From Vescimonas coprocola (GTDB taxonomy: Bacteria; Bacillota_I; Bacilli_A; RF39; UBA660): a DNA stretch of 64,000 bases. The translations under genes were made by a program, and so were the position numbers. Numbering within the stretch: the first letter of the stretch is position 1; the number at the start of each line of letters is the position of its first letter. The notes below the pieces were generated by a model that saw only the letters and a program-made list of their open reading frames with translations, ran no database searches and was not told the DNA's origin. The stretch lies in assembly GCA_963660615.1 (NCBI GenBank), contig CAVKYE010000005.1, positions 3,349 to 67,348 on the forward strand, given 5' to 3'. This document shows positions 18,199-25,919 of this stretch, one piece after another.

Positions 18199-18250
18199 TG
18201 TTAAATTTTTAATTATTGTTGTAATTGTTTTAAGCAGAAAATTCTGTTTT

Positions 18251-18306
18251 TTTCTTTATTTTAGTGCATTTTTTTGGTTATCGTGCTATAATTTGGGTGT
18301 AGTATT
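18251..18306 (+). promoter_or_regulatory. promoter element, copy 1 (repeated at 22021-22076)
   Basis: TTTCTTTATTTTAGTGCATTTTTTTGGTTATCGTGCTATAATTTGGGTGTAGTATT with TGcTATAAT (18287-18292 = -10). Confidence 0.55.
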
Positions 18307-18326
18307 ATTGATTTGGGGGGAAGACG

Positions 18327-20185: not shown

Positions 20186-22003
20186 GTGTTTGCTGTGGTA
20201 GTGACTAATTTAACGATGCTAATTTTATTTAGTATCTTTTACATGTTTGGGGTATTATTTATCTATTTTTCAAAGACGAGATTAAAAAGTGAGGAAACGA
20301 AGATTTATTCTTTATTGATAATTTCTAATATAATTGGTTTATTTTTGCAATTATTATGTGATTTTGTTTCGTTTAAGTATGATGAATTATCTCCTATATT
20401 TTGTGATTTGATTTTTAGACTTTATTTAATATATTTTGTTGTTTGGACAACCTTGATTTTTATATATTTGATTGAAATTTCATTTAAGAATAAGAAAAAA
20501 ATTGTTAAATTAGCTATATTTGGGGCGATTATAGTAGCGGCAGGAGCACTTTTATTACCTTATGATTTGTATAGAAATATGGTAGATAAAATATATTATA
20601 CTTACAATGGTGCGGTTACTTTAGTATTTGCTTATGCTGGAATAATTGGTATGTTTATGTTTGCTATATTAATATTTAAGAGAAAAAATATAAGTAAGAG
20701 GAAGGCAATTCCGTTATGGATATTTATAATTTCTAGTTTGTTATTAACATATATACAGATGAATAGGCCAGAATTTGTAGTAATGGCGGCGATGGAAAGT
20801 TTTATTTGTTGTATGATGTATTTTACTATTGAAAATCCTGATGTGCAGATGATTAATGAACTTTATAAGAATAAAAAATTAATTGAGAAATCTAATGAGG
20901 ATACTTCTAGGTTTTTGTTTAGGATTACTCAGGATATTAGGAGGCCAGTAGAGGAAATTAGTGATATTAGTAATGATATGAAAACTTTGAATACTAAGGA
21001 AGAATTTATAGAGGCTAGTAAATATATTAATAATTATAGTAATCAAGTTGATTATTTGATTAATAAGGCTTTAAATATTTCTAATATGGATACACAAACT
21101 ATTAAGATTTTTGAGAACAAATATAACCCTCGTAATTTGTTTAAGGAAGTTAGTTTTAGGGCTTTGGAGAATAAGAATGACAATATTAAATTTAGTTACC
21201 AGTTAAGTAATAGTCTTCCTAATTATTTATATGGAGATTCTATTAAGCTTAAACAGACTTTATCCTCTATTATTAATATTGCTTATAGTTATACTAGTTC
21301 TGGTTTTGTTAATATGGATGTGAGTACGATTATTAAGTATGGTATTTGTAGACTTGTTATTACAATTGAGGATTCTGGACGTGGTATTAGTATTGATAGG
21401 ATAAATGAGATTCTTAGTATGACTGGTAGTGATTTAAAGAGTGTTAATATTTCTAATAATGATAATTGTTATTTGGATATTATTTCGGTTAAGAAGCTTG
21501 TTAATATGCTTGGTGGTTCACTTATGATTAAGAGTGAAGAAAATAAGGGTACTGTTGTTACGATTACTTTGGATCAAAGGATTGTTAAGGATAAGAGTAC
21601 TGAGTTATCTAAGAAATTAGAAAGGTATGAGCAGTCTTTGTATGGGGATAAAAAAGCTCTTGTTATTGATTCTGATGAGAAGGAACTTGTTTTGATTTCT
21701 GATGTTTTACAGAAAAGTGGTATAACGGTTTCATCTTCGGTTTATGCGAAGGATTGTATAGAAAATATTAGAAGTAAGATGAAATATGATTTTATTATTT
21801 TGGATGATGTTTTATCTGATAGTAGTGCTTATGATGTTTTAAAGGAAATATCAAAGAATAAAAATTTTAAGATTCCAGTTATTGTTATGATTAGTGATAA
21901 TAAGGAAGGAATAAAACTTCATTACATGAAGGATGGATTTTTTGATTGTATTATGAAATCTAAATTAGATTCAGAGCTTGAGAGAATTCTTAAGAGATTT
22001 TAA
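20186..22003 (+). CDS. 7TM hybrid histidine-kinase-like receptor (H-box His replaced by Gln), paralog 1; start may be GTG 20195
   Basis: Seven hydrophobic helices in the first ~210 aa. RFLFRITQDIRRPV in the H-box position. HATPase_c N box (IINIAYSYT), DSGRGI, LGGSL. C-terminal receiver (ALVIDSDE, FIILDD, VIVMISD, IMKS). Confidence 0.8.
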   Translation: MFAVVVTNLTMLILFSIFYMFGVLFIYFSKTRLKSEETKIYSLLIISNIIGLFLQLLCDFVSFKYDELSPIFCDLIFRLYLIYFVVWTTLIFIYLIEISFKNKKKIVKLAIFGAIIVAAGALLLPYDLYRNMVDKIYYTYNGAVTLVFAYAGIIGMFMFAILIFKRKNISKRKAIPLWIFIISSLLLTYIQMNRPEFVVMAAMESFICCMMYFTIENPDVQMINELYKNKKLIEKSNEDTSRFLFRITQDIRRPVEEISDISNDMKTLNTKEEFIEASKYINNYSNQVDYLINKALNISNMDTQTIKIFENKYNPRNLFKEVSFRALENKNDNIKFSYQLSNSLPNYLYGDSIKLKQTLSSIINIAYSYTSSGFVNMDVSTIIKYGICRLVITIEDSGRGISIDRINEILSMTGSDLKSVNISNNDNCYLDIISVKKLVNMLGGSLMIKSEENKGTVVTITLDQRIVKDKSTELSKKLERYEQSLYGDKKALVIDSDEKELVLISDVLQKSGITVSSSVYAKDCIENIRSKMKYDFIILDDVLSDSSAYDVLKEISKNKNFKIPVIVMISDNKEGIKLHYMKDGFFDCIMKSKLDSELERILKRF

Positions 22004-22026
22004 AGCCTATTTTGGCTTTTTTTCTT
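20816..22026. repeat. ~1.2 kb near-identical repeat, copy A (cytoplasmic half of kinase 1 plus terminator)
   Basis: Constant offset of 3916 nt to copy B and identical translation. Differences seen: GAA/GAG at 20833, stop TAA/TAG, one base in the terminator. Confidence 0.9.
22002..22024 (+). terminator. rho-independent terminator
   Basis: AAAGCC-TATTTT-GGCTTT followed by a T run. Confidence 0.6.
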
Positions 22027-22076
22027 TATTTTAGTGCATTTTTTTGGTTATCGTGTTATAATTTGTGTGTAGTATT
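22021..22076 (+). promoter_or_regulatory. promoter element, copy 2
   Basis: Same 56 nt as 18251-18306 with 2 mismatches. TGtTATAAT, -10 at 22057-22062. Confidence 0.55.
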
Positions 22077-24083: not shown

Positions 24084-25919
24084 ATGGTTATAGGTGTATC
24101 TGTTATTAGTTGTTGTTTGATTTATAGTATTTTGCTTATGATAATTTATTTTTCTAAGCAAAGATTAGATAACATGGAAAATAAGGTTTATGGTGTTATG
24201 GTTATAATAAATATTTTTGGCCTTATTTTGGAACTTTTGTGTTGCTATTTTACTTATAAAAATGGTGATAGTTCTATCAATTCTTTGCTTTGTTCTATTT
24301 GTAATAGGTTATTTATTATATATATGCTTACTTGGCTTTTTCTGTTTACTTTTTATATATTTTATATTACTTTTAGTAAGCAGGTTAGTATTAAGAAAGA
24401 GCTTGATAGATATAAACAGTTATTTTTGAAAGTGGCAACTTTTATATATGTTATTTTGTTTTTATTAGCGATGATTTTACCTATTTATTACTTTAATGAC
24501 GGAACGTATGTATATAGTTATGGGCCAGCGACATCTTTGCTTGTTGTTTTTGGTGGCACTTCAATTTTATTTGATATATTTTGTGTTGTTAAAAATAGAA
24601 AAAATATTAGATCTAAACAGTATTATCCACTTTTTGTATTTATTTTACTTATGATTGTTGTTTTAATAATTAGAAATATAAATCCTGGAATAATACTTAT
24701 TAATTCAACTTTTGCATTTATAACTATGATTATGTATTTTACTATTGAGAATCCTGATGTGCAGATGATTAATGAACTTTATAAGAATAAAAAATTAATT
24801 GAGAAATCTAATGAGGATACTTCTAGGTTTTTGTTTAGGATTACTCAGGATATTAGGAGGCCAGTAGAGGAAATTAGTGATATTAGTAATGATATGAAAA
24901 CTTTGAATACTAAGGAAGAATTTATAGAGGCTAGTAAATATATTAATAATTATAGTAATCAAGTTGATTATTTGATTAATAAGGCTTTAAATATTTCTAA
25001 TATGGATACACAAACTATTAAGATTTTTGAGAACAAATATAACCCTCGTAATTTGTTTAAGGAAGTTAGTTTTAGGGCTTTGGAGAATAAGAATGACAAT
25101 ATTAAATTTAGTTACCAGTTAAGTAATAGTCTTCCTAATTATTTATATGGAGATTCTATTAAGCTTAAACAGACTTTATCCTCTATTATTAATATTGCTT
25201 ATAGTTATACTAGTTCTGGTTTTGTTAATATGGATGTGAGTACGATTATTAAGTATGGTATTTGTAGACTTGTTATTACAATTGAGGATTCTGGACGTGG
25301 TATTAGTATTGATAGGATAAATGAGATTCTTAGTATGACTGGTAGTGATTTAAAGAGTGTTAATATTTCTAATAATGATAATTGTTATTTGGATATTATT
25401 TCGGTTAAGAAGCTTGTTAATATGCTTGGTGGTTCACTTATGATTAAGAGTGAAGAAAATAAGGGTACTGTTGTTACGATTACTTTGGATCAAAGGATTG
25501 TTAAGGATAAGAGTACTGAGTTATCTAAGAAATTAGAAAGGTATGAGCAGTCTTTGTATGGGGATAAAAAAGCTCTTGTTATTGATTCTGATGAGAAGGA
25601 ACTTGTTTTGATTTCTGATGTTTTACAGAAAAGTGGTATAACGGTTTCATCTTCGGTTTATGCGAAGGATTGTATAGAAAATATTAGAAGTAAGATGAAA
25701 TATGATTTTATTATTTTGGATGATGTTTTATCTGATAGTAGTGCTTATGATGTTTTAAAGGAAATATCAAAGAATAAAAATTTTAAGATTCCAGTTATTG
25801 TTATGATTAGTGATAATAAGGAAGGAATAAAACTTCATTACATGAAGGATGGATTTTTTGATTGTATTATGAAATCTAAATTAGATTCAGAGCTTGAGAG
25901 AATTCTTAAGAGATTTTAG
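24084..25919 (+). CDS. 7TM hybrid histidine-kinase-like receptor, paralog 2
   Basis: Diverged multi-pass N-terminus. The C-terminal ~395 aa are identical to 20186-22003. Confidence 0.8.
   Translation: MVIGVSVISCCLIYSILLMIIYFSKQRLDNMENKVYGVMVIINIFGLILELLCCYFTYKNGDSSINSLLCSICNRLFIIYMLTWLFLFTFYIFYITFSKQVSIKKELDRYKQLFLKVATFIYVILFLLAMILPIYYFNDGTYVYSYGPATSLLVVFGGTSILFDIFCVVKNRKNIRSKQYYPLFVFILLMIVVLIIRNINPGIILINSTFAFITMIMYFTIENPDVQMINELYKNKKLIEKSNEDTSRFLFRITQDIRRPVEEISDISNDMKTLNTKEEFIEASKYINNYSNQVDYLINKALNISNMDTQTIKIFENKYNPRNLFKEVSFRALENKNDNIKFSYQLSNSLPNYLYGDSIKLKQTLSSIINIAYSYTSSGFVNMDVSTIIKYGICRLVITIEDSGRGISIDRINEILSMTGSDLKSVNISNNDNCYLDIISVKKLVNMLGGSLMIKSEENKGTVVTITLDQRIVKDKSTELSKKLERYEQSLYGDKKALVIDSDEKELVLISDVLQKSGITVSSSVYAKDCIENIRSKMKYDFIILDDVLSDSSAYDVLKEISKNKNFKIPVIVMISDNKEGIKLHYMKDGFFDCIMKSKLDSELERILKRF

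Follow-up and report, generated by a model that had tools for sequence, protein, structure and literature searches.

The window described here, a stretch of 64,000 nucleotides (nt) from contig CAVKYE010000005.1, contains two units on one strand, each consisting of a gene for an AMP-binding, adenylate-forming ligase (ANL ligase) followed by a gene for a membrane protein of about 600 amino acids. The membrane proteins are built like hybrid histidine kinases, with seven transmembrane helices (7TM), a dimerisation and histidine phosphotransfer (DHp) domain, a catalytic and ATP-binding (CA) domain and a receiver; the first of them, pseudokinase 1, is encoded at positions 20186-22003. In both proteins the H-box His, which is the autophosphorylation site of HisKA kinases, is replaced by Gln. 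By comparison with canonical kinases, they have lost the phosphate acceptor, the motif for phosphatase action and the greater part of the ATP site, and the receiver is left without its switch residues. The window proteins very probably cannot autophosphorylate on His, and the replacement is, judged from its distribution, conserved and meaningful; they appear to belong to a large, undescribed group of dead kinases in small-genome gut bacteria. As an overall explanation it is proposed, with a probability of roughly one half, that these hybrid histidine pseudokinases signal without phosphoryl transfer, are coupled to the ligase and exchange their specificity as a ligase-sensor cassette.

Loss of the phospho-acceptor and of other catalytic motifs

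The segment 20909-20950 codes for RFLFRITQDIRRPV, in which CAG at 20930-20932 specifies Gln249 of the 605-residue open reading frame (ORF; Q246 if translation starts at the GTG at 20195), and the identical codon was found in copy 2 at 24846-24848 (Gln255). An earlier note on this DNA, made from the letters alone, had placed this Gln in the column of the phospho-acceptor. On the full protein, the Pfam model HisKA (PF00512) had no match up to E = 1, and the DHp piece had none up to E = 10, with or without a change of the Gln to His in silico, whereas the canonical paralogue L024 was recognised with 67.7 bits. Since an alignment to PF00512 was not directly feasible without a match, comparisons with solved kinases by phmmer and with paralogues by hhalign were used instead. 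By phmmer, FLFRITQDIRRP is paired with FLAKISHEIRTP of RetS and FIANISHELRAP of HK853; in a MAFFT alignment with the genome's own kinases and relatives, the Gln falls beneath their His; and hhalign of 43 family members against nine canonical paralogues pairs it with an invariant H249 (probability 100%, E 2e-118, 603 columns). By these three concordant alignments the Gln is in the His column, as the note had it. A His elsewhere in the DHp domain, for which the note had also proposed to look, was found in neither protein. Each of the two proteins, of 605 and 611 residues, contains a single His (H579 and H585, respectively), which is located in the receiver.

The remaining motifs are compared in Table 1. 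The note had described the N, G1 and G2 boxes as intact. This was borne out for the G1 box, whose D396 and G400 do not vary among 114 close homologues and whose G398 occurs in 112 of these, but not for the other two. The N box aligns with RxKQxxxNLLTNAxKYT of the canonical paralogues, and its N364 is one helical position off register with respect to both flanking anchors; it is I365 that aligns with the Asn of NLLTNA, of DNA in RetS and of NNA in the genome's own kinase. Across the close family, this column holds Asn in 55, Ile in 48 and Leu in three proteins. The sequence LGGSL looks like a G box but corresponds in the alignment to the HGG motif located after G2 in canonical kinases. In addition, the F box is gone from the window proteins, and both the G2 lid and the F box are absent from all His-less members. 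With the N-box Asn, the F box and G2 gone and G1 alone left, the suggestion of an ATP-binding receptor was not upheld. The phosphatase position of the E/DxxT/N motif is occupied by Lys, Arg or Asn in the family.

For the receiver, the earlier reading of a retained acceptor Asp and Lys and of DS in place of the acidic pair was right, but the Thr/Ser column is occupied by I569, with S570 one residue beside it, and a second Ser, S592, replaces the Pro of the K-P motif. The acidic pair is DD in 104 of the 114 homologues, and an extra Asp, D497, might compensate for the Ser in the window proteins. D495, D540 and K591 are invariant among these homologues, and D496 and D497 are nearly so. By Pfam, the window proteins were still recognised as HATPase_c (43 bits, cut-off 26.4) and Response_reg (38.8 bits, cut-off 30.2), as compared to 95 and 89.6 bits for L024, in which the Hpt domain absent from the window proteins is also present.

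Table 1. Catalytic and receiver motifs of the window proteins compared with canonical kinases (numbering of pseudokinase 1)
Motif	Canonical	Window	State
N box	KQiilNLLTNAxKYT	KQTLSSIINIAYSYT; Ile365 in Mg-binding Asn column	
G1 box	DxGxG	DSGRG	intact
G2 box	GTGLGL	NCYLDI	lost
H+4 phosphatase residue	Thr/Asn	Arg (QDIRR)	lost
Receiver acidic pair	DD	D495-S496	partly kept
Receiver acceptor Asp	D	D540	kept
Receiver Thr/Ser column	LTA	MIS (I569; S570 one off)	lost
Receiver K-P	KP	K591-S592	Lys kept, Pro lost

In an AlphaFold2 model of pseudokinase 1, with a mean predicted local distance difference test score (pLDDT) of 80, seven transmembrane (TM) helices are followed by a two-helix DHp hairpin (residues 220-265 and 271-297), a CA domain of alpha/beta type and a receiver. 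The top Foldseek matches of this model were DivL, YycG, ShkA, HK853 and RetS, with DivL as the best and with E about 1e-10 for DivL, YycG, HK853 and RetS, and by the model the DHp-CA fold of a kinase is retained. The N-terminal 7TM domain had no significant Pfam match (7TMR-DISM_7TM, E 3.4).

Distribution and origin of the His-less family

Among the 114 homologues, which are 54-100% identical, the His column contains Gln in 92, Ala in 15 and Gly in seven, and never His. Also invariant are a junction motif FTIENPD, which is present in the canonical paralogues too, much of DHp helix 1, many positions of the CA domain and receiver, and the C-terminal tail. The ORFs are intact and the mean column identity is 62%, with DHp helix 1 and the C-terminal tail almost invariant; as judged from this conservation, purifying selection was shown to maintain the core fold.

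An exhaustive search of 1.84 billion cluster representatives yielded 669 proteins with an E value of 1e-30 or below. Among the 150 best of these 669 representatives of 50%-identity clusters, the column holds Gln in 88, His in 19, Asn in 14, Glu in 10, Asp in six, Thr in four, Ala in four, Ser in three and Lys in two (two rows are without the column), so that His-less outnumber His-bearing proteins by about 6:1 among these nearest representatives. All ten of the 150 that are longer than 720 amino acids carry His. When one genome per species of the same order was sampled, 124 of 151 genomes, from 66 of 86 genera, were found to contain between one and eight full-length members, in genomes of about 1 Mb.

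Eighty species-level loci were obtained from GTDB, all from gut metagenome-assembled genomes labelled Bacilli, 'Tenericutes', Candidatus Coprosoma, CAG:822 or CAG:472, of human, rabbit, goat, chicken and mouse origin. Gln is encoded in 48 of them (CAA in 42, CAG in six), His in eight, and Gly, Asn, Glu, Ala, Met, Thr, Asp, Ser or Ile in the other 24. Since both Gln codons are in use, it is the amino acid and not the codon that is conserved. Conservation of the Gln in orthologues, which the note had proposed to check, was seen in most of the close homologues and in most of these loci. The eight His-bearing loci also belong to the family: all of them keep NxxxNA, GTGLGL, DDN, T-A and K-P, a combination found in none of the 72 His-less loci, and GTGLGL by itself is likewise confined to the eight. 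In the wider His-less clade, the receiver frequently lacks the acidic pair and in some cases the acceptor Asp as well.

An origin of the Gln as a sequencing or assembly artefact was considered and is highly improbable. The two copies of the window are not independent evidence of each other, since their DNA is identical over the last 1170 nt save for the final base of the stop codon (TAA 22001-22003 and TAG 25917-25919). The His-less state is common to hundreds of relatives from independent assemblies, and the Gln itself was seen in the two window copies, in the independently assembled P0005-P0010 and L037 and, with both codons, in the 48 loci.

The His-bearing relatives share the 7TM domain and the junction with the His-less proteins. 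A C-terminal extension is present in some of them and was identified by Pfam as an Hpt domain in L024, the one paralogue scanned. On a tree of 154 cytoplasmic parts, built with the His column masked, the distribution of His and non-His requires three changes, as compared to 22.6 with shuffled labels, which indicates one old loss of His followed by a large radiation, plus two exceptions (P0264 and P0149/L011). P0264, a cluster representative of 606 amino acids located inside the canonical clade, reads FLSSMSQEIRTPL, with Gln for His and with N box, G1, GTGLGL, DDN, T-A and K-P intact. By its position and motifs this looks like an independent, recent loss of His and could show the first step of decay. 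In P0149 and in the protein encoded at L011:1456-3270 (+), the His is kept (LLFELSHEVREPL), the G2 box is lost, the acidic pair reads GDK and the column of the acceptor Asp contains Phe. As judged from the alignments and the tree, the family derives from canonical tripartite sensor kinases of the ArcB/BarA type, and the loss was shown to be ancient and family-wide.

In addition to the window proteins, the genome encodes four ordinary HisKA kinases with their His, one LytS-type kinase and five other receivers. The genome-wide HisKA scan recovered these four kinases and not the two window genes. Neither another, canonical hybrid kinase nor a His-bearing member of the receptor family was found in this genome, while canonical members are present in 96 of the 151 sampled genomes of the order. 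A genome-wide search for Hpt domains was also negative, the best match (E 0.09) being below the cut-off. With the His absent, the loss conserved and no Hpt domain in the genome, the canonical His-Asp relay would not be available, and the earlier description of pseudokinases that work without it is well supported.

The ligase-receptor locus and its genomic setting

Directly upstream of the receptor gene, and in the same orientation, a ligase gene is present at 70 of the 77 GTDB loci that could be evaluated; among the genome loci, this holds for 22 of 30. Farther out, the surroundings of these pairs vary (for example metG...tatD or FTHFS...murD), which identifies the ligase-receptor pair itself as the conserved unit. 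Between the two units of the window, the 7TM domains share 33% identity, and the cytoplasmic parts of 391 amino acids are 100% identical in the assembly; the value for the ligases is given with the coordinates in Table 2. The identity of the two receptor genes at the DNA level begins at 20834 and decays about 24 nt past the stop codon, so that the conversion tract ends just beyond the genes.

In strain L037, which has flanks of 99.5% identity, a single unit is present, with a different ligase of 914 amino acids, a third variant of the 7TM domain and the same core. The break points relative to the window are at 18320, the ligase start, and at 24717, the TM/DHp junction. A collapse of the assembly as the cause of the 1170-nt identity was rejected on this basis, since in L037 the constant module, 98-99.5% identical, is joined to a different cassette; its presence in a second strain implies that the module is real. 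The L037 ligase (L037:2891-5635, +) has an N-terminal extension of about 370 amino acids and contains two stretches that match Pfam AMP-binding; it may have arisen by a partial internal duplication.

For 65 ligase-receptor pairs, the divergence of the ligase was found to correlate with that of the 7TM domain (r = 0.70). In a partial Mantel test, this correlation persisted when the cytoplasmic part was controlled for (r = 0.66, permutation p = 0.001), whereas the ligase and the cytoplasmic part given the TM domain gave r = 0.09. This pattern suggests that ligase and 7TM domain form a swappable specificity cassette, and that the dead core is a constant module which would be kept uniform by recombination.

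Table 2. Features of the two ligase-receptor units (window coordinates)
Feature	Position	Strand	Remarks
Conserved 60-nt stretch 5' of unit 1	18247..18306	+	holds TGCTATAAT, extended -10-like
ANL ligase 1, 614 aa	18327..20171	+	Pfam AMP-binding, E 2.2e-54
Hybrid histidine pseudokinase 1, 605-aa ORF	20186..22003	+	7TM, DHp, degenerate CA, receiver
FTIENPD junction motif	20822..20842	+	TM7/DHp boundary; constant module starts about here
Degenerate H box SRFLFRITQDIRRPVE	20906..20953	+	Gln249 in His column, Arg at H+4
Degenerate N box KLKQTLSSIINIAYSYTS	21245..21298	+	Ile365 in catalytic Asn column
Intact G1 box IEDSGRGIS	21365..21391	+	
Site of lost G2 box/ATP lid	21458..21481	+	NDNCYLDI; canonical IEGTGLGL
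Receiver domain 1	21650..22000	+	D495-S496-D497, D540, I569/S570, K591-S592
Terminator-like hairpin and T run 3' of unit 1	22002..22029	+	consensus match only
Second copy of 60-nt upstream stretch	22017..22076	+	holds TGTTATAAT
ANL ligase 2, 634 aa	22098..24002	+	27% identical to ligase 1
Hybrid histidine pseudokinase 2, 611 aa	24084..25919	+	Gln255 in His column

The first GTG of the pseudokinase 1 ORF (20186) overlaps the ribosome-binding site GGAGG, which ends at the same position. The next GTG (20195) is at a spacing of 8 nt, and database proteins of 602 amino acids begin with MVVTNL; because of this spacing and this match, the true start is probably at 20195, giving a protein of 602 residues. 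The 60-nt stretches upstream of the two units are 97% identical and include an extended -10-like TGnTATAAT. The one at unit 1 lies within the constant left flank, which is shared with strain L037 at 99.5% as far as 18320. A generic promoter scan of the locus gave sites no more numerous than in shuffled sequence, and a promoter role for these stretches is suggested solely by the duplication of TGnTATAAT. The hairpin downstream of unit 1 has a stem of 6 bp with three GC pairs, followed by TTTTCTTTAT.

The best NCBIfam and PDB matches of ligase 1 are fatty-acyl-CoA ligases and 4-coumarate ligases. Only three ANL ligases are encoded in the genome. The third of them (589 amino acids), in the region C11:19439-22360 outside the window, has genes for PlsC-like acyltransferases with HxxxxD and FPEGT motifs on both sides and a pgsA-like gene nearby, and it shares 31% identity with ligase 1. 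This setting and this similarity point to the locus ligases as accessory paralogues of a lipid-activating enzyme. Neither a ketoacyl synthase (PF00109) nor DegV/FakB was found in the genome, which implies that acyl chains must be scavenged and activated by ANL ligases. From these relationships, fatty-acid-like substrates are inferred for the ligases of the locus.

Outside the window, contig C9 (19023-23721) contains an orphan HisKA kinase of 418 amino acids with several transmembrane helices, the H box FRITHEIKNPI and no adjacent regulator. Its neighbours resemble the germination protease gene gpr and spoIIP, which suggests a sporulation kinase in this 1.26-Mb genome. Examined as a paralogue or partner of the window proteins, this kinase was rejected as a specific partner, since BLASTP gave only a 74-residue match in the CA domain, with 29% identity, and the gene is set among sporulation genes.

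Possible modes of action and comparison with known systems

In the proposed mechanism, the 7TM domain would sense a lipophilic carboxylate that is the substrate or the product of the presumably co-transcribed ligase, and the invariant DHp helix would transmit the resulting conformational change to the CA-receiver scaffold. This scaffold would then act via protein contacts, either on the ligase itself or on another partner, and the signal would proceed without phosphoryl transfer. A further-reaching version is put forward tentatively: the ligase would make or consume a lipid-like molecule that is read by the co-varying 7TM domain, in a phosphorylation-independent, pherotype-like cell-cell or nutrient signalling which would have radiated to one to eight copies per genome of about 1 Mb in uncultured gut Bacilli. 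Several points weigh against the proposal. The correlation between ligase and TM domain could result from mere adjacency on one side of a recombination break point. The loss of kinase activity is inferred from motifs, and the G1 box (DxGxG) with its adenine-binding Asp is kept almost everywhere, which would be compatible with some nucleotide binding. The Asp pocket of the receiver, invariant in the close subfamily, would suit phosphorylation from elsewhere.

The last point leads to an alternative that the earlier note had also raised, in which the transmitter is dead and Asp540 is phosphorylated by another kinase or by acetyl phosphate, with the DHp-CA part reading or relaying its state, as in the reversed signalling of DivL, or with the receiver serving as a phosphate sink. 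The conserved pocket, the presence in the genome of four canonical HisKA kinases and a LytS-type kinase, with the C9 kinase lacking an adjacent regulator, and DivL as top Foldseek match would all fit. In the window copies, however, the second metal-binding Asp has become Ser (D496S), Ile is found in the Thr/Ser switch column, and K-S has taken the place of K-P; the Response_reg score is less than half that of the canonical paralogue; the pocket has decayed in part of the wider His-less clade; and no Hpt domain is available in the genome as a phosphate shuttle. A receiver fed by another kinase is therefore considered unlikely. The 7TM domain might instead be a membrane dock or channel that passes exogenous fatty acids to the ligase for vectorial acylation, with the core as a dimerisation or docking scaffold devoid of signalling. 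The need to scavenge acyl chains with only three ANL ligases, and the relationship of ligase 1 to the enzyme encoded between the PlsC-like genes, would speak for such a role. A housekeeping ligase is already present in the phospholipid operon, however, and strain variation in copy number and cassette type is unusual for a core nutrient route; moreover, the ancestral forms are complete signalling kinases that include Hpt, and conservation extends over the entire cytoplasmic core, beyond what a docking surface would require. A pure uptake function thus appears rather improbable.

RetS, which among solved structures is the closest in sequence (E 1.1e-11), suggests yet another possibility, namely that the pseudokinase forms DHp heterodimers with a true kinase, thereby blocking or draining it. 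It is in agreement with this that conservation within the protein is highest in the DHp helix and that many relatives encode canonical paralogues with this architecture alongside His-less copies. The genome of the window and those of several relatives contain His-less copies only, however; the four HisKA kinases present are of other subfamilies, the C9 kinase being the one compared; and the obligatory ligase partner would be left unexplained, all of which makes this mode of action doubtful. That the proteins are still enzymes, which bind ATP via G1 and phosphorylate another residue, the receiver or the ligase, is highly improbable, as is the artefactual origin of the Gln considered above. G1 and its Asp are conserved and the N-box Asn persists in about half of the close family, but the window proteins have Ile at this position, no His-less member has retained the G2 lid or F box, and the DHp domain is without His.

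Compared to known systems, the window proteins appear by sequence to belong to an established kind, the histidine pseudokinase, but to neither the DivL nor the PsmA family. PsmA from Streptomyces is a hybrid kinase-like protein in which the H-box His is replaced by Glu, Asp, Gln, Val or Tyr among orthologues, the ATP motifs of the CA domain are degenerate and the D/ExxT/N motif is lost, and no autokinase activity was detected in vitro (PMC12963549). The window proteins share with PsmA the DHp-CA and receiver domains, the replaced His, degenerate ATP motifs, the lost phosphatase motif and the conservation of the residues right after the His column. Unlike them, PsmA is a cytoplasmic, polarisome-associated partner of DivIVA, found only in Streptomycetaceae, and has no 7TM sensor, ligase partner or cassette polymorphism; the relationship would be at the superfamily level only. 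DivL from Caulobacter is a pseudo-histidine kinase with Tyr for His (PMC4211667, PDB 4q20). Here, also, a kinase fold without His is used, as a sensor or scaffold and not as a phosphodonor. However, DivL contains PAS sensors and no fused receiver, reads the phosphorylation of DivK and controls CckA, and is restricted to Alphaproteobacteria. RetS from Pseudomonas aeruginosa (PDB 6dk7/6dk8) is a hybrid sensor with several transmembrane helices that acts mainly by DHp contact with another kinase and less by autophosphorylation of its own. Unlike the window proteins, it keeps the His (ISHEIRTP) and the N-box Asn (DNA), and it has two receivers and a periplasmic sensor domain. The kinase partner of RetS is GacS, for which no equivalent was found in the window's genome.

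Canonical paralogues within the same bacterial family (for example L024, L028 and L034; 7TM-HisKA-HATPase_c-REC-Hpt) have the same 7TM domain, FTIENPD motif and domain order and often the same upstream ligase. These keep SHEIRTPL, NLLTNA, GTGLGL, DDN, LTA and KP, and about half of them contain Hpt. In its variation, the locus has the pattern of pherotype loci such as agr (AgrB/AgrD/AgrC) and comQXP, in which the signal-making gene and the sensor half vary between strains: the enzyme gene and the membrane sensor half co-vary, and the cytoplasmic half and the flanks are constant. However, agr and comQXP use modified peptides as signals, and their receptors are active kinases acting on a response regulator, whereas the window locus has a dead kinase, no linked regulator and an ANL ligase as the neighbouring enzyme. 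Hybrid kinases with several transmembrane helices and no large extracellular domain that sense fatty-acid-like signals, encoded beside genes for acyl-metabolising enzymes, are represented by RpfC/RpfF/RpfB, the diffusible signal factor (DSF) system, and by CqsS/CqsA; RpfC regulates RpfF through direct contact of its receiver domain. The resemblance to RpfC and CqsS is in layout only, both being active His kinases of Proteobacteria. A literature search gave no paper on a ligase-linked hybrid pseudokinase and nothing relevant on the kinases of RF39-type genomes.

Only a handful of histidine pseudokinases is known, like DivL and PsmA, and in the receptor family described here the dead form is the majority. 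Since the canonical kinase ancestors survive in sister genomes, the transition from kinase to pseudokinase can be followed through its successive stages, with intermediates that have kept the His and lost G2 (P0149/L011) or lost the His and kept all else (P0264). The constant pairing with a ligase and the swappable ligase-sensor cassette suggest an undescribed coupling of lipid-like ligands to signalling, in so far uncultured organisms with very small gut genomes and without fatty acid synthesis.

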